Shown here: positions 10,427 through 52,157 of the stretch, piece after piece
Layout of the letters: each line of letters opens with the position of its first letter
Position numbering within the stretch: position 1 is the first letter of the stretch
The notes under the pieces: model-generated
The model's input: the letters and a program-made list of their open reading frames with translations, nothing else
Database searches by the model: none
Told to the model about the DNA's origin: nothing
Translations under genes and position numbers: made by a program
Source: Escherichia coli
GTDB lineage: Bacteria > Pseudomonadota > Gammaproteobacteria > Enterobacterales > Enterobacteriaceae
Reading direction: 5' to 3' (one strand)
Assembly (NCBI RefSeq): GCF_046105845.1
Contig: NZ_CP151004.1
Length of the DNA stretch: 64,000 bases

Positions 10427-11287
10427 TTAAGATGCCTTTCTAATCAACCGATGCCCCTCATTCATCATCAGGATTTTGCTATACACATCTTCCTCGACGG
10501 CGTTTTTTGCTGATGCCATCACTCGTGCCAGATTCGCCTCGTTGTGATTATTCACATACGCTTTGCCGACGGCGGTGATAAACGCTTTGCGCAGATCGCT
10601 GGCGATATTTACTTTAGCGACGTGATAATTAACAAAGCTGCGCAATATCTCCGGGGCGATACCGGAGCCGCCGTGAATAACCAACGGCACCGGACAGACT
10701 TCGGCAATGCGCTTCAGCAAGGGGATATCGATCCGCGGTATATCGTCCAGACCATGAACGTTACCAATAGAAACTGCCAGCATGTCGCAACCGGTGCGCT
10801 CGACAAAGGTCTTCACCTTTTCCGGTTCCGTTTTGCAATCGGCTTCGCTGACGTGATCATCTTCTTTGCCGAGAATCGCCCCCAGCTCCGCTTCAACCGG
10901 TACGCCATAGGATTTACAGAAATCGACAGCTTCCTGGGTGAAAGCGATATTCTCTTCAAAAGAGAATGCGGCACCGTCAATCATGACCGAGGTAAAGCCC
11001 GCGCGCACCGCCTGTTTAACATCCTCCTGAGTTTTCCCGTGATCCAGATGAAGACTGACCGGAACATCCATTTTATCGGCGTGACGTTTCACGATTTCAT
11101 AAATGTAATCGTATCCCGAGAGTTGTGCATTGGTGGGCGCAATCTGAATGAAGTTGGGTAATCCTGAACGCTCAATGGCGTTTAAAATTGAAATCGTCGT
11201 CTCCAGATTGGTGGTATTAAACGCGCCCGCTAATACCCGTTTTTCCTGAATGCGGTCGAGCAGTATCCGTCCATTAACTAATGGCAT
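10427..11287 (-). CDS. Class II ketose-bisphosphate aldolase (FbaA/GatY/KbaY family)
   Basis: 286-aa ORF with LLDRIQEKRVLAGAFN, LHLDHG and VIHGGSG motifs typical of class II zinc aldolases; GAGG SD upstream. Confidence 0.8.
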   Translation of the reverse strand: MPLVNGRILLDRIQEKRVLAGAFNTTNLETTISILNAIERSGLPNFIQIAPTNAQLSGYDYIYEIVKRHADKMDVPVSLHLDHGKTQEDVKQAVRAGFTSVMIDGAAFSFEENIAFTQEAVDFCKSYGVPVEAELGAILGKEDDHVSEADCKTEPEKVKTFVERTGCDMLAVSIGNVHGLDDIPRIDIPLLKRIAEVCPVPLVIHGGSGIAPEILRSFVNYHVAKVNIASDLRKAFITAVGKAYVNNHNEANLARVMASAKNAVEEDVYSKILMMNEGHRLIRKAS

Positions 11288-11317
11288 TTGAAAACCTCAT
11301 CTTTTAATATCAGTTAA

Positions 11318-11587
11318 TTATTCAGCTTCACCGAAGCGGTCACGAAATAAGGCGGTGAGAGTTTGTATTGCCTCATTTTCATCATCGCCTTCGCAGCGTA
11401 TTTCCACCGTTTTACCGCCTTTTATTCCGGCGCGCATAATATTCATCATGCTGGTGGCATTAATATCATTACCCTCATAATGCAGCGTCACTTTACAGCT
11501 AAACTTTTTGGCGGCTTTTACCAGACAAGCCGCCGGACGTGCATGCAGGCCAGTACTGTTTCTGACCTCCACGGTTTTACTCAACAT
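11318..11587 (-). CDS. HPr-family phosphocarrier protein (operon-encoded HPr paralog)
   Basis: 89-aa ORF with GLHARPA (His15) and a Ser at position 46; GGAGG SD upstream; overlaps the 3' end of the kinase gene by 11 bp. Confidence 0.75.
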   Translation of the reverse strand: MLSKTVEVRNSTGLHARPAACLVKAAKKFSCKVTLHYEGNDINATSMMNIMRAGIKGGKTVEIRCEGDDENEAIQTLTALFRDRFGEAE

Positions 11588-13085
11588 AGTGCTCCTCCCG
11601 ATGGTGTAATGGCATCACGCCTTCTTGCTGTAATTTCAACTGATACCAGCTTTTCCATTTGTGCTGATAACGCTGTAATTGATGGTATCTCGCCCGATTC
11701 GGTAACAAACGTTGGGCTATGGTAACTTGCGGCGGTGGAATATCCGGTGCGGCAGTTAATAATGCTCCGACAGAAACCGCCTCGTTAAATGCAATTGCCT
11801 CAACCGGACGCTGTAAAATATCCGCCTTTAATTGCAGCCAAAGGGGATTATGGGTTGCCGGGCCGATTACTTTTAACGCGCTGGTGCCAGGCACATTAAA
11901 ACAGGCGAAGCAGTTGGCAAATTCCATGGTTAATCCCAGTGAGACGCTGGCAATTAACATGTCAATATTTAACGTATCGCTAAGCCCATAAAATAATCCA
12001 CGGGTATGGCGATTTTTATAGGGCGAACCCGAACCGCGAAGATGTGGAATAAAGAGGGGAATGTCATCGAGCGACCAGTTCCCCGCCAGGTAATCCGCAT
12101 GTCCGCGAGTAAGTGATGCGGCGATCTCCTCATCGGTTAGCCGGAACGTGTTACGCAGCCACTCCAGAGCGAAACCGCCCACGGGCAGCGACGCAAACAG
12201 GGTGAACTGGTTTGCAAGCGAATAACAGCCGTTTGCCAGCTTGTCACGTTTGGCCTGTTCATCCAGCGTCGGTTGTGTATCCAGTTGCAGAATGCCTTCT
12301 GTGGTCCCCGTCGAGTTAAGGATATCGCCCGGCATCATCTGCAACGCCCGTGCACCCACCATATGGTCATGTCCGGCCAGCGTCACGCTGACCGGTTGCG
12401 AGAACCCAAGCGTTTTGCAGAGCGACTCGCTGACCCATCCGGCGTGTTCGCCTGGCTGCACCAATGGCGCAAATGCTGAACAGGGAACGTGTAACAACGC
12501 CGCCGCTTTCGCTGACCATTCGCCTTTGCGCACGTCCAGACACAGCGTGCGGCTGGCTAAGGTGATATCCGTGCGCTGTTCGCCGGTCAGCCGCCAGAGC
12601 AGTACTTCCGGCGCATGTAGCCAACGCAGGCCGCGGCGATTACGCAGTGGGTAATGTTCCAGCAACCAACGCATTTTGAAGGCAGAGTAATTGCTGTGCA
12701 GCGGTAACCCGCAAATGTCATAAAGTGCCGCACTGTCTGCCTCGCTAAGTGTAGCCAGATACTCTTCACCGCGACGGTCATACCAGGCCAGCATTGGCGT
12801 CAGGATCTCGCCATGCTCGTCAAGGAACACGCCTGACTCGCCAAAACTGGCAATGCTTATCCGCCTGACTGGCAGCGGCGAAGCGGCGTTCAGTTGCGCT
12901 ATCGCCTGGCGGACCTCCTGCCAGAGGGCGTCGATATCGAAATCGACATCGCCCTGTGGGGAGATCTGTTTTGCCGTCACGAATTTATGCGCGCCCAACG
13001 TCGTTGCGTCCAGGCAGGAAAAGCAGGTGACTTTGCAATTGGTGGTGCCAATATCGATAACGATAGCTGCGCTGTTATCAGGCAT
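11577..13085 (-). CDS. FGGY-family carbohydrate kinase
   Basis: 502-aa ORF with N-terminal AIVIDIGTTNCKV (FGGY phosphate-1 motif) and two-domain actin-like fold size; overlaps the EIIC stop by 8 bp. Confidence 0.8.
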   Translation of the reverse strand: MPDNSAAIVIDIGTTNCKVTCFSCLDATTLGAHKFVTAKQISPQGDVDFDIDALWQEVRQAIAQLNAASPLPVRRISIASFGESGVFLDEHGEILTPMLAWYDRRGEEYLATLSEADSAALYDICGLPLHSNYSAFKMRWLLEHYPLRNRRGLRWLHAPEVLLWRLTGEQRTDITLASRTLCLDVRKGEWSAKAAALLHVPCSAFAPLVQPGEHAGWVSESLCKTLGFSQPVSVTLAGHDHMVGARALQMMPGDILNSTGTTEGILQLDTQPTLDEQAKRDKLANGCYSLANQFTLFASLPVGGFALEWLRNTFRLTDEEIAASLTRGHADYLAGNWSLDDIPLFIPHLRGSGSPYKNRHTRGLFYGLSDTLNIDMLIASVSLGLTMEFANCFACFNVPGTSALKVIGPATHNPLWLQLKADILQRPVEAIAFNEAVSVGALLTAAPDIPPPQVTIAQRLLPNRARYHQLQRYQHKWKSWYQLKLQQEGVMPLHHREEHYVE

Positions 13086-14436
13086 AAACCGTGCTCCGCG
13101 TCATTCGGAAAATACCATACAGTACCAGGGCGATAACCGGCACCAGACCAATGGCGATGAGATTGCCGTTGAAGATTTCCAGCAGCCAGAAGCGGAACGG
13201 GTTACCGCCATCAAGGAAACTGGAGACCTGGCCGCTGGAGCCTTCGGCAAATTTGAAATTAACGTCTTTCGCCATTCCGGTAATAAACGGCGCGATTTTA
13301 GTCGCAATCCACAGATCGGCAATAATCACCGGGATCGCCGCCAGAACGGTGCGGAAAATGTTGCCACGGCTGGCTAAAGCAATCATCGACGCCATTACCG
13401 CCAGGTTGGCAAGGTCGCCAAGCGGCAGGACTTCATTACCCGGAAGGACAAACGCGATAAAGACCGAGATTGGCGTCAGCAGCAGGGCGGTGGAGATAAT
13501 CGCCGGGTTACCTACGGCAACGGCGATATCCAGGCCGATATAGAGATCGTCACGGTCAGGGTATTTGGCATTGAGATACTTTTTAATGGCTTCAGACAGC
13601 GGTAATAAACCTTCCATCAGGATGCGTACCATGCGTGGCAGGATGAACATCACACCGCCAATGCTGATGCCAAGCAGCAAGACTTTTTTGAAATCGTATC
13701 CGGCAATTACGCCGAGCAGAATGCCCAGAATAGTACCAACCATCATCGGTTCGCCGAATATGCCAAACTTTTTCTGTACGGTTTCCGGATCGATATGAAT
13801 ACGATTGAGGCCGGGGATATGGTCGATGATTTTGTCGACCAGCAGACCGACCGGAAAGAACACCACCGAAGAGAGCGTCGGCAATGAGATCCCTTCCAGG
13901 CCAAAGTATTTTTGTACCAGTGGCGCAGACCAGTCGGCGAGTTTAAGTACTACCACCGCAGCAATCGCCGCCGCCAGTAAACCAAAAAACAGGCTGCCGG
14001 TGCTGTAATAAACCAGCGTACCAGCAAGGGCAAAATGCCAGTAGTTCCACATATCTACATCAACGGTGCGGGTTTTATTTAACGCCAGCATCGCCACGTT
14101 AATCAGAATAGTCAGGGGAATAACAAACGGGGCAATTGGCGAACCCCATGTAATAGCGGAAAGCGGCGGCCAGCCTAAATCCACCACCGGTAAATTAATT
14201 CCGGTGCGTTCAACCATCGCCTGGGCCGCTGGCCCGACATTGCTGGTAAGAATATCGAAAATGGCATAAATACCGACAAAACCAATGCCGACCGTTAATG
14301 ACGAACGTAAGGCTTTAGCGGGTTTTACTTTAAAACAGAGAGCAAGAATAAATAACACCAACGGCAACATTACCGTGGGACCAAATCCCAATATATATTG
14401 CACTATATTATAGAGGGTATGCGCGATATCGTTCAT
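13078..14436 (-). CDS. PTS galactitol-family EIIC permease
   Basis: Track ORF 13078..14466 (GTG); start refined to ATG 14436 with AAGAGG SD; multi-TM protein colinear with GatC (LGPTVMLP, GIGFVGI, GEP motifs). Confidence 0.85.
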   Translation of the reverse strand: MNDIAHTLYNIVQYILGFGPTVMLPLVLFILALCFKVKPAKALRSSLTVGIGFVGIYAIFDILTSNVGPAAQAMVERTGINLPVVDLGWPPLSAITWGSPIAPFVIPLTILINVAMLALNKTRTVDVDMWNYWHFALAGTLVYYSTGSLFFGLLAAAIAAVVVLKLADWSAPLVQKYFGLEGISLPTLSSVVFFPVGLLVDKIIDHIPGLNRIHIDPETVQKKFGIFGEPMMVGTILGILLGVIAGYDFKKVLLLGISIGGVMFILPRMVRILMEGLLPLSEAIKKYLNAKYPDRDDLYIGLDIAVAVGNPAIISTALLLTPISVFIAFVLPGNEVLPLGDLANLAVMASMIALASRGNIFRTVLAAIPVIIADLWIATKIAPFITGMAKDVNFKFAEGSSGQVSSFLDGGNPFRFWLLEIFNGNLIAIGLVPVIALVLYGIFRMTRSTVYA

Positions 14437-14450
14437 AATAAACCTCTTTT

Positions 14451-14483
14451 TCAGGCGAGAGCGCACCTCGCGTTAGCGCCTGA
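14451..14483 (-). other. Intra-operon stem-loop between PTS EIIB and EIIC genes
   Basis: TCAGGCG...CGCCTGA 7-bp stem enclosing a GC-rich sub-hairpin, in the 76-bp EIIB-EIIC spacer. Confidence 0.35.
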
Positions 14484-14512
14484 TGGAGTGGGTTGAAATT
14501 AATTATTATTAA

Positions 14513-14794
14513 TTACTTTTTAAGGATCGAAACAATTTGCGCCAGTACTTTCTCTTCGCCAATACCGGTAATAATCGGCAAGCCGTTAACCACCGGGACG
14601 TCGAGTTCATAAGGCACTTTAGTCGTTGAGACTACCAGTGCTACGCCATCAGTATTTCCAGGTAAAGAGGCAACGTTGGTTTGGGAATAATTGACGTTAA
14701 GACCGTGCTCTTTACAATATTCCATGACTTTTTCTGTTACCGCCGTGGATGTGGCAATACCCGTGGCGCAGACAAATAAAATGGTTTGACTCAT
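14513..14794 (-). CDS. PTS galactitol-family EIIB component
   Basis: 93-aa ORF with ILFVCATGIATS (phosphoryl-Cys loop) resembling GatB. Confidence 0.8.
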   Translation of the reverse strand: MSQTILFVCATGIATSTAVTEKVMEYCKEHGLNVNYSQTNVASLPGNTDGVALVVSTTKVPYELDVPVVNGLPIITGIGEEKVLAQIVSILKK

Positions 14795-15264
14795 ATTTCA
14801 CCTCGTTCTTTCATTTTGTTTAAGATTACTGTGTGTATTTCTGTTGTTTCCATCGTAAGCAGGGCGCGCATAAAGGGCGTATCCTGAATCATCTCCATAA
14901 TCCAGCCCAGGGCATTTAATTGTTTATTACTTTCGCTTAAGGCGAGCAAAAAAATCACCCTGACAGGTACGGGGTCAGGATCGCCGCCCATATCGGCAAA
15001 CTCTACCGGTTCCGGCAGGATGCCGACGGCAATTGCATTGTGCCTGACATGTTTATGGTCCGTGTGCGGAATGGCGACACACGGTGGTTCGGTAGGCAGC
15101 CCCGTTGGGTACGTCGCCTCACGTTTCAGTACGTGATCGGCAAAATCAGGGACCACCAGCTCGGCGGCAACCAACGGTTGCGCTAACTGACGGATGATCT
15201 GTTCAACGCTTAACCCTGCCGGAAGTCGTTGAATATAATTTTCCTGAAACTGTATGCCTTGCAT
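14791..15264 (-). CDS. PTS EIIA component (mannitol/fructose/galactitol type fold)
   Basis: 157-aa ORF with CVAIPHTDHKH active-site His region resembling GatA; 4-bp overlap with the EIIB start. Confidence 0.8.
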   Translation of the reverse strand: MQGIQFQENYIQRLPAGLSVEQIIRQLAQPLVAAELVVPDFADHVLKREATYPTGLPTEPPCVAIPHTDHKHVRHNAIAVGILPEPVEFADMGGDPDPVPVRVIFLLALSESNKQLNALGWIMEMIQDTPFMRALLTMETTEIHTVILNKMKERGEI

Positions 15265-15288
15265 TTTATTCCTCTTAAAAAAGTGTAC

Positions 15289-16035
15289 TTAACTCACTTC
15301 CCGCCGTTGCAGCACGGTGCCCAGATAATATTTATTTCCTTTTAACCAGACGTTGCCAAACTCAACGGGTAACTCTCGGGAGAAAAAGACTAACTGCTCC
15401 AGATGCAAAACGGGTGCATCTTCACTGATATCTAAAAAATGACCGCGTTCATTACCAATTAATCGCGCGGCATAGCGACTTTCAGAGTAACGAATTTTTC
15501 TTTGCGACAAACTTTCTATTGTTGGAAATAAATTGTGTTGATTAAAATCGATTTCCACGATGCCGGGACATAGCTCAATATTGATACGGTTCTCTATCAG
15601 CATCGCTTTTTCATCACCAATTGAACGTAACCGCTCAAGGTAAAGAATATCCTGACCGGGCGTTATTCTTAATTTCTCTGCCACATAACGATTAGCCGGT
15701 TCAATCCGTGACGTAATAACTTCAGTGGTAAAGTGTATTTTCTGGCTTTCCAGCGATTCCGCGAATGACAATAATCCTTCACCTAACGGATATGCCACGT
15801 TCTCTTTTTTGACAAATGTTCCCTTCCCCTGGACCTGAATCAACACGCCTTCTTTTACCAGTTGGGCGACCGCTTTTTTAACGGTTCCCCGACTCACTTC
15901 CAGCATATCCATAATCTGGTATTCCGAAGGAATGCGATCGTCTTCCACCAGATCCCCGGTATAAATACTTTCTCTTATCCACTCCACCACTTGTTGATAG
16001 AGCGGTATTTGTGACGACTTACTTAATGATTTCAT
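15289..16035 (-). CDS. GntR/HutC-family transcriptional regulator (HTH + UTRA effector domain)
   Basis: Track ORF 15289..16044 (GTG); start refined to ATG 16035 (AGGTG upstream); N-terminal wHTH (IPSEYQIMDMLEVSRGTVKKAVAQLVKEGVL) and C-terminal UTRA-like domain. Confidence 0.8.
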   Translation of the reverse strand: MKSLSKSSQIPLYQQVVEWIRESIYTGDLVEDDRIPSEYQIMDMLEVSRGTVKKAVAQLVKEGVLIQVQGKGTFVKKENVAYPLGEGLLSFAESLESQKIHFTTEVITSRIEPANRYVAEKLRITPGQDILYLERLRSIGDEKAMLIENRINIELCPGIVEIDFNQHNLFPTIESLSQRKIRYSESRYAARLIGNERGHFLDISEDAPVLHLEQLVFFSRELPVEFGNVWLKGNKYYLGTVLQRREVS

Positions 16036-16058
16036 GGCGCGCACCTGAACATTTACAG

Positions 16059-16072
16059 TTGTCTATGGACAA
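16059..16072. promoter_or_regulatory. Palindrome TTGTC-TATG-GACAA upstream of the island GntR/HutC regulator gene; candidate operator
   Basis: Perfect 5-bp inverted arms 24 bp upstream of the regulator ATG, followed by a third TGGACAA half-site at 16076-16082. Confidence 0.4.
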
Positions 16073-16233
16073 TCATGGACAACTTCAAGCGTATAGTAGG
16101 TGAACGGGAGAAAAAGAGGATCGAAGCGTCTCACATTTTGAGGGACCAAATCGTGATCAAAAAAATGTGACGTGAGTCGATATTTGTCAGAAGTTTACTG
16201 CGCCGTAAGGAAATAACGGCGCGTTGGTAGGTG

Positions 16234-19037
<2,804 letters not shown>

Positions 19038-36672: not shown

Positions 36673-36731
36673 TCATTAATCGGCAACTTTGGGTTGCCGC
36701 CAAATTGCTAATATCGAGTACGTTGCTTCAT

Positions 36732-36831
<100 letters not shown>

Positions 36832-36871
36832 ATTTCTCGTTGGTCATCACTTTTGAAATCAAACTTGACGA

Positions 36872-42515: not shown

Positions 42516-42575
42516 TAACACGTTGATTGATAAGGAGTCAAAAGACTCCTTTGAGACAGGTTACAAATGTAAAAT

Positions 42576-42676
42576 TGCCTGATGCGCTGCGCTTATCAGG
42601 CCTACTGGATGAGTTGCAATATATTGAATTTGCACGATCTTGTAGGCCGGATAAGGCATTTACGCCGCATCCGGCA
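42576..42676. repeat. REP elements downstream of livF
   Basis: TGCCTGATGCGCTGCGCTTATCAGGCCTAC and inverted TGTAGGCCGGATAAGGCATTTACGCCGCATCCGGCA. Confidence 0.9.
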
Positions 42677-44229: not shown

Positions 44230-44237
44230 TTCTCTTA

Positions 44238-44381
44238 CCCTCACCCTAACCCTCTCCCAAAGGGAGAGGGGACCGATCGGCGTGGTATCCAGGTGCCGTG
44301 TCGGTTTGCAACTTCGCTCGGTGGGAAAGTATGCACCGCCTTTCTCCCTCGCCCCTCTGGGGAGAGGGCCGGGGTGAGGGG
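44238..44381. repeat. Pair of inverted GC-rich repeats (CCCTCACCCTAACCCTCTCCC ... GGAGAGGGCCGGGGTGAGGGG) in the ugpB-ugpA intergenic region
   Basis: Two oppositely oriented copies ~100 bp apart, each with its own short hairpin (CCCTCTCCC-AAA-GGGAGAGGG; CCCTCT-GGGG-AGAGGG). Confidence 0.65.
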
Positions 44382-44404
44382 ATCACAACACGAAGAGTTT
44401 AACT

Positions 44405-48492: not shown

Positions 48493-50238
48493 ATGATAAA
48501 ACCGACGTTTTTACGCCGGGTGGCCATTGCTGCTCTGTTCACAGGAAGTTGTTTTAGTACGGTAGCCGCGCCACCTGCGCCGTCTCCTGTTTCTTACGGC
48601 GTGGAGGAAGATGTCTTTCATCCGGTACGCGCGAAACAGGGGATGGTGGCGTCTGTAGATGCTACTGCCACTCAGGTGGGGGTGGATATCCTCAAGGAGG
48701 GCGGGAATGCCGTTGATGCCGCCGTGGCTGTGGGCTACGCGCTGGCGGTAACGCATCCGCAGGCAGGGAATCTGGGCGGTGGTGGTTTTATGCTGATCCG
48801 CTCGAAAAATGGCAATACCACTGCTATCGATTTCCGCGAAATGGCACCCGCCAAAGCGACCCGCGATATGTTCCTTGATGATCAGGGTAACCCGGACAGC
48901 AAAAAATCACTCACTTCGCATCTGGCTTCTGGTACGCCCGGTACGGTAGCAGGTTTCTCGCTGGCGTTGGATAAATACGGCACCATGCCGTTGAACAAAG
49001 TGGTGCAACCGGCGTTTAAACTGGCACGCGATGGTTTTATCGTTAACGACGCGTTGGCTGACGATCTCAAAACCTACGGTAGCGAAGTGCTGCCGAATCA
49101 CGAAAACAGCAAGGCTATCTTCTGGAAAGAGGGCGCGCCGCTGAAAAAGGGCGACAAGCTGGTGCAGGCGAACCTGGCAAAGAGCCTGGAGATGATTGCC
49201 GAAAACGGCCCGGACGAATTCTACAAAGGCACGATAGCGGAACAGATTGCCCAGGAGATGCAGAAAAACGGTGGCTTGATCACTAAAGAAGATTTAGCGG
49301 CGTATAAAGCGGTCGAGCGCACACCAATAAGCGGCGATTATCGCGGGTATCAGGTTTACTCCATGCCACCGCCATCTTCCGGCGGGATTCATATCGTGCA
49401 GATCCTCAATATCCTGGAAAACTTCGATATGCAGAAATACGGCTTTGGCAGCGCCGATGCGATGCAAGTCATGGCAGAAGCGGAGAAATACGCCTACGCC
49501 GACCGCTCGGAATATCTTGGCGACCCGGATTTTGTCAAAGTCCCGTGGCAGGCGCTGACCAATAAAGCCTATGCCAAATCTATTGCCGATCAAATCGATA
49601 TCAATAAAGCGAAGCCATCCAGCGAAATTCGCCCCGGCAAGCTTGCGCCTTATGAGAGTAATCAAACTACCCATTACTCAGTGGTGGATAAAGACGGCAA
49701 CGCGGTAGCGGTGACCTATACGCTGAACACCACCTTCGGTACGGGCATTGTCGCGGGTGATAGCGGTATTCTGCTTAATAACCAGATGGATGATTTCTCC
49801 GCCAAACCTGGCGTACCGAACGTTTACGGGCTGGTGGGCGGTGACGCCAACGCGGTCGGGCCGAATAAACGCCCGCTGTCGTCGATGTCCCCAACCATTG
49901 TGGTGAAAGACGGTAAAACCTGGCTGGTTACCGGTAGCCCTGGCGGGAGCCGGATTATCACCACCGTGCTGCAAATGGTAGTGAATAGTATCGATTATGG
50001 CATGAACGTCGCCGAAGCGACCAATGCGCCGCGTTTCCACCATCAGTGGTTGCCGGACGAGCTGCGTGTCGAAAAAGGGTTTAGCCCGGATACGATCAAG
50101 CTGCTGGAAGCAAAAGGTCAGAAAGTGGCGCTGAAAGAGGCGATGGGTAGTACACAAAGCATTATGGTTGGGCCTGACGGTGAGCTGTACGGTGCATCTG
50201 ACCCGCGCTCGGTAGATGATTTAACGGCGGGGTATTAA
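48493..50238 (+). CDS. ggt: Gamma-glutamyltranspeptidase Ggt
   Basis: Track ORF 48466..50238; start refined to ATG 48493 (MIKPTFLRRVAIAALFTGSCFS signal peptide) with GGAGAA SD; Ntn-hydrolase motifs incl. TTHYSVVD autoprocessing site. Confidence 0.95.
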   Translation: MIKPTFLRRVAIAALFTGSCFSTVAAPPAPSPVSYGVEEDVFHPVRAKQGMVASVDATATQVGVDILKEGGNAVDAAVAVGYALAVTHPQAGNLGGGGFMLIRSKNGNTTAIDFREMAPAKATRDMFLDDQGNPDSKKSLTSHLASGTPGTVAGFSLALDKYGTMPLNKVVQPAFKLARDGFIVNDALADDLKTYGSEVLPNHENSKAIFWKEGAPLKKGDKLVQANLAKSLEMIAENGPDEFYKGTIAEQIAQEMQKNGGLITKEDLAAYKAVERTPISGDYRGYQVYSMPPPSSGGIHIVQILNILENFDMQKYGFGSADAMQVMAEAEKYAYADRSEYLGDPDFVKVPWQALTNKAYAKSIADQIDINKAKPSSEIRPGKLAPYESNQTTHYSVVDKDGNAVAVTYTLNTTFGTGIVAGDSGILLNNQMDDFSAKPGVPNVYGLVGGDANAVGPNKRPLSSMSPTIVVKDGKTWLVTGSPGGSRIITTVLQMVVNSIDYGMNVAEATNAPRFHHQWLPDELRVEKGFSPDTIKLLEAKGQKVALKEAMGSTQSIMVGPDGELYGASDPRSVDDLTAGY

Positions 50239-50242
50239 TATC

Positions 50243-50273
50243 TTAAGCCCTCTCCCGATAGGCGAGGGCTTAA
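50243..50273. terminator. Bidirectional hairpin between convergent ggt and yhhY
   Basis: TTAAGCCCTC-N11-GAGGGCTTAA perfect 10-bp stem in the 60-bp intergenic gap. Confidence 0.6.
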
Positions 50274-50298
50274 ATGACAAACTTAGATTGCAAATTCT

Positions 50299-50787
50299 CT
50301 ATTTCACCCGCGCCATATAATACGCATCGACATATTCACCATTACGTAATGCGTACTTCTTGCCAGTCCCTTCAATCTCAAAGCCGAATTTTTTATAGAC
50401 CTTAATTGCTGGCGCGTTATCGACGAACACCGTTAGCTCAATACGATCTACCCGCAACCAGTTGTCGCACATTTCAATCATCTCTCGCATCAGGGCGCTG
50501 GCGACGCCGCGATTCTTCCAACGGGAGTCGACACAAATACCAAAATCGGCAACATGACTGCGGCGTGGGCGCTGTTGCACGTCAATGGTGAGGTGACCCA
50601 CGACGGTTCCATCAATACAGGCAACTAACTGTTTGATGCCGGGACGATCGGCGAGTCGCTCCTGCCACATATGATCGGAAGGATGAGGCACCTGTAGTGT
50701 GTTGCAATACACCTCCGGCTGGGCGTGAATCTGCCTGATGGCCTCGTAATCGCGCGTTTCAGCATGGCGTATCACTATCTCACTCAT
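50299..50787 (-). CDS. yhhY: GNAT-family N-acetyltransferase YhhY
   Basis: Track ORF 50299..50865; start refined to ATG 50787 (MSEIVIRHAETRDYEAI...). Confidence 0.88.
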   Translation of the reverse strand: MSEIVIRHAETRDYEAIRQIHAQPEVYCNTLQVPHPSDHMWQERLADRPGIKQLVACIDGTVVGHLTIDVQQRPRRSHVADFGICVDSRWKNRGVASALMREMIEMCDNWLRVDRIELTVFVDNAPAIKVYKKFGFEIEGTGKKYALRNGEYVDAYYMARVK

Positions 50788-50887
50788 TCCTTTGTCCTCT
50801 TTGGGGTAAATGTCCCTTTCAACATCATTGACTTTCCAATGCGAGTCAAATGCATTTTTTTGCAAAAAGTGTTGGACAAGTGCGAAT

Positions 50888-50906
50888 GAGAATGATTATT
50901 ATTGTC
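50888..50906 (+). promoter_or_regulatory. Fur box overlapping the ryhB promoter
   Basis: GAGAATGATTATTATTGTC immediately upstream of the RyhB 5' end resembles the Fur consensus GATAATGATAATCATTATC. Confidence 0.7.
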
Positions 50907-50908
50907 TC

Positions 50909-50998
50909 GCGATCAGGAAGACCCTCGCGGAGAACCTGAAAGCACGACATTGCTCACATTGCTTCCAGTATTACTTAGCCAGCCGGGTGCTGGCTTTT
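50909..50998 (+). ncRNA. ryhB: Fur-regulated iron-sparing small RNA RyhB
   Basis: GCGATCAGGAAGACCCTCGCGGAGAACCTGAAAGCACGACATTGCTCACATTGCTTCCAGTATTACTTAGCCAGCCGGGTGCTGGCTTTT matches RyhB; ends in a GC hairpin plus U-tract; Fur-box-like AT-rich sequence immediately upstream. Confidence 0.92.
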
Positions 50999-51119
50999 TT
51001 TTGATCTTTCGTTTTCAATTTATCCACGGGAAGTGCTTGTGTTCGTTATGCGCACTCCAGTAGGAACCACGTCCGCTTTGCGCTAAGGTGTAAATAATCA
51101 CCTTAAAAAGGACGAAATC

Positions 51120-52157
51120 ATGGTCATCAACTGCGCCTTTATTGGCTTCGGCAAAAGCACCACCCGTTACCATCTGCCGTATGTACTTAACCGCAAGGAT
51201 AGCTGGCATGTCGCGCATATTTTTCGCCGCCATGCGAAGCCGGAAGAACAGGCCCCCATTTACTCTCATATCCATTTCACCAGCGATCTCGACGAAGTAC
51301 TAAACGATCCCGATGTTAAGCTGGTTGTGGTCTGCACCCATGCAGACAGCCACTTCGAGTACGCGAAGCGCGCGCTGGAAGCCGGGAAAAATGTGCTGGT
51401 CGAAAAACCGTTCACCCCGACGCTTGCCCAGGCGAAGGAGCTGTTTGCGCTGGCGAAAAGCAAAGGACTGACCGTCACGCCGTATCAGAATCGTCGTTTT
51501 GACTCCTGCTTCCTGACAGCGAAAAAAGCGATTGAAAGTGGCAAGTTGGGAGAGATTGTCGAAGTGGAAAGCCATTTTGACTATTACCGCCCGGTGGCAG
51601 AAACCAAACCTGGGCTGCCGCAGGATGGCGCGTTTTATGGCCTTGGTGTGCATACGATGGACCAGATTATTTCTCTGTTCGGTCGCCCGGATCACGTCGC
51701 TTATGACATCCGCAGCCTGCGTAATAAAGCCAATCCTGACGACACCTTTGAAGCGCAGCTGTTTTATGGCGACCTGAAAGCCATCGTCAAAACCAGCCAT
51801 CTGGTGAAAATCGATTATCCGAAATTTATCGTTCACGGTAAGAAAGGTTCGTTTATTAAATACGGTATCGACCAGCAGGAAACCAGTCTCAAGGCTAATA
51901 TTATGCCGGGCGAACCGGGATTCGCAGCGGATGATTCGGTCGGTGTGCTGGAGTATGTCAATGACGAGGGTGTGACGGTCAGAGAAGAGATGAAGCCGGA
52001 GATGGGCGATTACGGGCGCGTTTATGATGCGTTGTATCAAACCATCACCAACGGTGCGCCAAATTACGTCAAGGAATCTGAAGTTCTTACCAATCTGGAA
52101 ATCCTTGAACGCGGATTTGAGCAAGCCTCTCCCTCCACAGTGACTCTCGCGAAGTAA
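51120..52157 (+). CDS. yhhX: Gfo/Idh/MocA-family NAD(P)-dependent oxidoreductase YhhX
   Basis: 345-aa ORF MVINCAFIGFGKSTTRYHLP (Rossmann N-terminus). Confidence 0.92.
   Translation: MVINCAFIGFGKSTTRYHLPYVLNRKDSWHVAHIFRRHAKPEEQAPIYSHIHFTSDLDEVLNDPDVKLVVVCTHADSHFEYAKRALEAGKNVLVEKPFTPTLAQAKELFALAKSKGLTVTPYQNRRFDSCFLTAKKAIESGKLGEIVEVESHFDYYRPVAETKPGLPQDGAFYGLGVHTMDQIISLFGRPDHVAYDIRSLRNKANPDDTFEAQLFYGDLKAIVKTSHLVKIDYPKFIVHGKKGSFIKYGIDQQETSLKANIMPGEPGFAADDSVGVLEYVNDEGVTVREEMKPEMGDYGRVYDALYQTITNGAPNYVKESEVLTNLEILERGFEQASPSTVTLAK

Follow-up and report, generated by a model that had tools for sequence, protein, structure and literature searches.

The ggt-yhhY junction

The window, i.e. the whole 64-kb stretch of E. 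coli DNA that was analysed (GC content 52%), carries genes ggt and yhhY in convergent orientation. Gene ggt encodes a gamma-glutamyltransferase of 580 aa and spans, stop codon included, positions 48496-50238 of the + strand; it was taken from the list of open reading frames, with the start annotated by RefSeq in PCN033, the nearest genome. It aligned with K-12 ggt as far as the TAA stop codon at 50236-50238 (blastn), and Ggt, used as tblastn control against the window, was recovered at 100%. On the - strand, yhhY (50299-50787, stop codon at 50299-50301) encodes a GNAT N-acetyltransferase of 162 aa plus stop, as indicated by its reading frame, the PCN033 annotation and a Pfam match to Acetyltransf_1 (2.8e-19). 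The tail-to-tail gap of 60 bp that had been claimed for these genes was recovered exactly, at 50239-50298, from both the sequence and the reading frames. Sequence, blastn comparisons, population probes and orthology with Escherichia albertii identified this convergent spacer as the unoccupied form of an accessory-gene site, designated ggt|yhhY. None of the 5,426 complete RefSeq E. coli genomes exceeded 98.5% identity over the 24 kb at window 40000-64000 (SCU-102, 19KM1776 and PCN033 came closest), so that the source lineage is not closely represented among them.

The single hairpin that had been claimed between both genes was also found. It corresponds to an inverted repeat (TTAAGCCCTCTCC / GGCGAGGGCTTAA) at 50243-50273, the only one in the 60-bp gap, and its service to both genes is presumptive. 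The fold displayed a 10-bp outer stem (TTAAGCCCTC/GAGGGCTTAA) and two inner C-G pairs; this inverted-repeat pattern occurred once in the window as compared to 0.01 occurrences expected by chance. Taken as RNA, the gap region reached -23.2 kcal/mol (z = -3.45 relative to dinucleotide shuffles), and the gap folded at -18.8 kcal/mol when taken from the + strand and at -20.7 kcal/mol from the - strand. When 49500-51500 was compared to Rfam, RyhB alone was recovered and the spacer had no match. The gene for the RyhB sRNA is located between yhhY and yhhX (50938-51002, + strand; RF00057, 83.1 bits, E = 1e-15) and its terminator is a T-run hairpin at 50977-50995.

The K-12 locus and the nature of its insert

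The window corresponded to K-12 positions 3,635,351 to 3,567,924 in reverse orientation (blastn). Homology stopped at window 50238, the end of the ggt stop codon, and restarted at 50296, two to three bp past the yhhY stop; the ggt-side flank was 95.7% identical and the yhhY-side flank 98.3%, with equal gene order and orientation. This alignment around ggt also confirmed that K-12 is devoid of the 60-bp junction. The statement, in the original prediction, that K-12 carries yhhZ-yrhA-IS1-yrhB between both genes was correct according to the RefSeq annotation of MG1655, where loci b3441-b3447 are arranged as yhhY (3581138-3581626), yhhZ, yrhA split by IS1E (insA6/insB6), yrhD, yrhB and ggt (3585081-3586823). 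The yhhY and ggt stop codons are 3,454 bp apart in this genome (3,452-3,454 bp between homology ends). YhhZ, YrhA, YrhB, YrhD and the K-12 island DNA found no match anywhere in the 64-kb window (tblastn, blastn).

YhhZ (392 aa) matched T6SS_HCP (1.6e-11) and, weakly, HNH (5e-3) in Pfam, while YrhB belonged to Imm35. Published descriptions of YhhZ agree with this, one naming it an "evolved Hcp" whose HNH is degenerate (PMC2907695) and another a His-Me nuclease among Hcp1-family polymorphic toxins (PMC5714182). The GC content of the island was 38% in K-12 (IS1 counted) and 34% in an APEC strain, within an E. coli range of 32-38%. The K-12 insert is an orphan Hcp-toxin/immunity cassette made of AT-rich foreign DNA. 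The label "Rhs-associated", which had been attached to the site, had to be abandoned: the K-12 insert is Hcp-associated, and RHS or YD repeats were not found by Pfam. The site displayed no integrase, no target-site duplication and no transposase besides that of the secondary IS1E in K-12. A search of the literature on yhhZ, yrhA and yrhB yielded no paper devoted to the ggt/yhhY junction.

A YhhZ-like Hcp was also encountered at ggt|yhhY in Citrobacter werkmanii and Citrobacter sp. FP75 (loci L007, 9744-12393, and L038, 9744-13127). Its N-terminal 229 aa were 74% identical to those of YhhZ and its C-terminus was different; the GC content of the island was 44%, and the site of Citrobacter sp. 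FP75 included a YrhB homologue as well. The presence of an Hcp-ET cassette at the same site in Citrobacter suggests that the island may be old or shared between genera, rather than recent in E. coli.

Distribution of site states among E. coli genomes

States were counted with short junction probes at the yhhY edge in the 5,426 complete E. coli genomes. At least four states exist, accounting together for 5,289 genomes. The K-12-type island was by far the most frequent (3,810/5,426), followed by the compact junction (903/5,426, ~17%), which was encountered among others in O25b:H4-ST131, PCN033 and 2012C-4221. An island with DUF4225, found in O157:H7 among others, was present in 343 of the 5,426 genomes, and yrhB was the only island gene in 233. 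The compact state is thus common and already annotated in public genomes, and represents an ordinary presence/absence polymorphism.

Junctions of other species and polarity of the site

Outgroup loci were gathered by a search for Ggt in genome contigs followed by tblastn, and the best 80 loci were listed; these included no E. fergusonii, no cryptic clades by name and no Salmonella. In E. albertii NBRC 107761, the gap between ggt and yhhY was 62 bp. Its spacer was collinear with that of the window over the full length and near-identical outside the hairpin core, all columns there being alignable (e.g. ...CTTAAAT[G/A]ACAA[A/C]CTTAGATTGCAAATTCTCTATT-TCA). The representative of a second Escherichia-like species (L006) displayed a 59-bp gap. 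More widely, the matches listed included more than 20 further members of Enterobacteriaceae and Erwiniaceae in which a compact convergent ggt/yhhY pair was accompanied by a hairpin. In Citrobacter youngae, Enterobacter, Leclercia, Pseudescherichia, Kluyvera, Pluralibacter, Phytobacter, Cedecea, Siccibacter, Pantoea and Erwinia, gaps were mostly 35-154 bp long, a few reaching ~370 bp. Strong secondary structure was predicted for both strands of all compact outgroup gaps, and most of those inspected below 110 bp contained a single GC hairpin.

The occupied alleles examined (K-12, APEC E12053, O157:H7, TUM18780 and 20-16) had in common a different 36-bp hairpin allele after ggt (GGTTAGCGGCCCTCTTCGTGGGAAGAGGGC...). 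The compact 57-bp spacer sequence was absent from all of them, which argues that it is neither a deletion scar nor derivable from a K-12-type allele by deletion. The window, for its part, displayed orthologous and collinear flanks, no remnants of the island and a spacer orthologous to that of the outgroup, as is the case for an empty site. The original reading of the junction as uninterrupted or ancestral was therefore supported by the gaps of E. albertii and the outgroups, by the AT-rich nature of the K-12 insert and by the lack of the compact spacer in occupied alleles. We consider it very probable (roughly 0.85) that the 60-bp junction is the ancestral unoccupied allele, that cassettes replaced the spacer in part of E. 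coli and that states were swapped by recombination of the flanks.

Recombination in the flanking genes

Calculated by blocks of 300 bp, the identity of the window to other E. coli ranged from 83% to 100%. Most pairs of distinct E. coli alleles differed at 24-34 sites in the last 600 bp of ggt, and alleles of yhhY (489 bp) at 19-38 sites. This diversity approaches the level of E. coli-E. albertii differences, which amounted to 30-51 sites in the comparison of the ggt end and yhhY. The 3' end of ggt and yhhY (window 49640-50787) were unusually diverse within the species. The yhhY allele of strain E300010 differed at 88 of the 489 sites and is probably an interspecies import.

A model with two haplotypes was rejected, as ggt/yhhY alleles do not segregate by site state. 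Two B2 strains, of which Z1323PEC0014 is compact and APEC E12053 occupied, possess identical Ggt proteins. Their sequences were identical over the 2,845 bp that end at the ggt stop; 12 differences followed within the first 445 bp of yhhY, beyond which both agreed again as far as position 1,967, a pattern pointing to a homologous-recombination patch that carried the alternative state. Homologous recombination within the hyper-diverse flanking genes is the apparent cause of switches in site state. The window and PCN033 were near-identical close to the junction (~450 bp on its left side, 1,300 bp on its right), and displayed 125 differing sites over the 4.2-kb left flank.

Origin of the compact junction in the window lineage

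Two other histories were weighed for the window lineage. According to one of them, it once possessed a K-12-like island that was then cleanly deleted, the compact junction being derived. A 6-bp ATTTTG motif found at both edges of the K-12 island could in principle mediate such a deletion, and the yrhB-only intermediate is evidence that the island is sometimes lost in part. If the K-12 edges were joined by deletion, this would nevertheless leave behind the K-12-type hairpin after ggt (GGTTAGCGGCCCTCTTCGTGGGAAGAGGGC) together with the hairpin proximal to yhhY in K-12, neither of which is present in the window; its spacer consists instead of 57 bp matching E. albertii, and island-derived sequence is lacking. 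ATTTTG was also the only candidate for a deletion scar or target-site duplication and was discarded, because the window spacer is not a join of the K-12 edges. Secondary deletion is consequently considered extremely unlikely. The other history concerns the lineage rather than the allele: an occupied ancestor would have regained the ancestral-type allele when its ggt 3' end, spacer and yhhY were replaced by recombination with an empty-site donor. The mosaic nature of the region, as reflected by its block identities, is compatible with such an event, as are the near-identity with PCN033, which is confined to the surroundings of the junction, and the difference in state between closely related B2 strains through a patch bounded inside yhhY. 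Against it, nothing pointed directly to a patch boundary peculiar to the window lineage, and the nearest relatives available for comparison displayed at most 98.5% identity. We regard this course of events as unlikely.

With the compact junction read as the ancestral unoccupied allele, the word ancestral is to be understood as applying to the allele; the window lineage, whose flanks are mosaic, may have kept it continuously or regained it by recombination.

The spacer hairpin

A canonical intrinsic (Rho-independent) terminator requires a GC-rich stem-loop directly followed by a U-run (at least five T in eight). The hairpin at 50243-50273 displayed the stem without the U-run, as its tails read TTAAATGA (+ strand) and TTAAGATATT (- strand), and this assignment was rejected. 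Nor was it among the calls of the consensus terminator scan, because there is no T-run on either side. Its placement, i.e. one hairpin common to both strands of a convergent pair, is that of a bidirectional terminator. A class of bidirectional terminators that consist of a hairpin between convergent genes of E. coli was described as relying on pausing and RNA polymerase collision rather than on canonical intrinsic termination (bioRxiv 10.1101/2022.10.23.513370); the lack of U-tracts in the window hairpin agrees with this class. Given its position, the maintenance of a hairpin despite sequence turnover and the existence of this class, it is somewhat more likely than not that ggt and yhhY share this element as a bidirectional terminator or pause site. 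Against this putative role, the hairpin lacks a U-tract either way and escaped the scan.

Alternatively, the hairpin might be nothing more than a decayed enterobacterial palindromic repeat of the CCCTCTCCC...GGGAGAGGG family, inserted between ggt and yhhY and without any role in ending their transcription. Its core (GCCCTCTCCCG...GGCGAGGGC) indeed resembles a repeat present at window 44250-44270 as well as between ggt and yhhY in Enterobacter, Leclercia and Kluyvera, and a U-tract is missing. This explanation is harder to reconcile with the compact gaps inspected, where a hairpin directly followed the ggt stop even when the sequence was unrelated (P. vulneris, Pluralibacter, Pantoea), with the occupied E. 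coli alleles, which retain a hairpin within 36 bp 3' of ggt, and with a stem that outlived inversion between E. coli and E. albertii. We hold a purely repeat-based explanation to be rather improbable; an origin from a repeat and a terminator function are mutually compatible.

The hairpin core was inverted with respect to that of E. albertii (L005, 9750-9778). In reverse complement, 26 of the 29 positions matched with one 2-nt gap; when both cores were aligned without reversal, 24 of 31 did and three gaps were needed. The loop of ST131 (CCGGTAGG) was the reverse complement of the E. albertii loop. As judged from these alignments, the inversion is likely to represent a quasipalindrome template-switch flip. 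When the E. albertii orientation was sought in E. coli genomes, the best junction match was 90.7% identical and no listed match was close enough.

The palindromic family was also noticed in the ugpB-ugpA spacer, where the window displayed a ~170-bp repeat at 44231-44404 (CCCTCTCCC...GGGAGAGGG, ...CCGGGGTGAGGGG) and K-12 a spacer of 96 bp. Members of this family fill the ggt/yhhY gap of Enterobacter cloacae and Pseudocitrobacter as well.

Other variable sites and repeats in the window

The rhsB position had been announced as a further difference from K-12. The difference itself was confirmed, and no rhsB homologue was found in the window; the site is not empty and harbours an alternative cassette of 6.5 kb. 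The latter lies at 9675-16235, between yhhJ and nikR, where K-12 displays rhsB-yhhH-yrhC-yhhI. It is composed of hicA/hicB, a GntR/UTRA regulator, PTS components IIA, IIB and IIC (EIIC-GAT), an FGGY kinase, HPr and a class II aldolase. This combination of hicAB and a PTS sugar operon was present in 1,631 of the 5,426 complete E. coli genomes.

Another variable site was encountered at gntU|yhgN. A RecQ-family helicase occupied it in O157:H7, TUM18780 and ST131 (L086, 15052-18378; L088, 15053-18351; L089, from 12016), accompanied by DprA in O157:H7 and TUM18780; the ST131 locus ends before that position. In K-12 and PCN033, gntU is directly followed by yhgN; the window is arranged likewise and is collinear with K-12 here. 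Finally, a dispersed repeat of ~90-127 nt at window 36723-36849 and 42570-42662 displayed 75-84% identity to several other intergenic places in K-12, and is probably an ERIC/IRU-like element.

Proposed history and comparison with known systems

The following history would account for the site. In the ancestor of Escherichia, and more widely of Enterobacteriaceae and Erwiniaceae, ggt and yhhY would have been convergent and separated by a short spacer with one GC-rich hairpin. In part of E. coli, K-12 included, the spacer distal to the hairpin would then have been replaced by AT-rich foreign cassettes. The commonest of these is the orphan "evolved Hcp" module, in which yhhZ (Hcp-HNH) is joined by yrhA, yrhD and yrhB, the last being an immunity gene of the Imm35 type, and into which IS1E would have come later in K-12; the DUF4225 cassette and the yrhB-only remnant are rarer. 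States would pass between lineages by homologous recombination in the unusually diverse ggt/yhhY region, with neither integrase nor target-site duplication, and the window strain carries the empty allele. K-12 would accordingly represent the derived state at ggt/yhhY, the original arrangement being held by the window strain, ST131 and ~17% of complete genomes.

More tentatively, the gap could be a cross-genus docking site, shared by Escherichia and Citrobacter, which receives orphan Hcp-toxin/immunity and small AT-rich cassettes without integrase, the empty and occupied states forming an old and possibly selectively maintained polymorphism swapped by recombination of the flanks. If true, which we find possible but somewhat doubtful, such a polymorphism would explain why the diversity of the ggt 3' end and yhhY is close to the divergence between E. 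coli and E. albertii. The locus is possibly a clean natural example of an integrase-free hot spot in a convergent pair with one hairpin, the latter being flipped between sister species. The significance of these observations is small and mostly a matter of bookkeeping, and nothing in them should surprise specialists.

Compared to the K-12 locus, the window displays the same flanking genes in the same order and orientation. It differs by the absence of the whole 3,454-bp Hcp-HNH toxin/immunity cassette with IS1E and by another hairpin allele after ggt. Its compact counterparts are the junctions of E. coli ST131, PCN033 and 2012C-4221 and of E. albertii, which share its architecture, a spacer of 58-62 bp and a near-identical sequence; over 140 bp, the junction of 2012C-4221 was 100% identical to that of the window and that of ST131 96.4%. 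Differences among compact junctions are limited to a few loop SNPs, except in E. albertii, where the hairpin core is inverted and two nt longer. With respect to the orphan "evolved Hcp" or Hcp-ET cassettes, which are found at this position in two Citrobacter genomes and in strains of the K-12 type, the window corresponds to the empty docking site. Like the SEnd-seq class of bidirectional terminators (e.g. ynaJ-uspE), its hairpin lies between convergent genes, is formed on both strands and has a non-canonical look; by its position and structure, it is a candidate member of this class.
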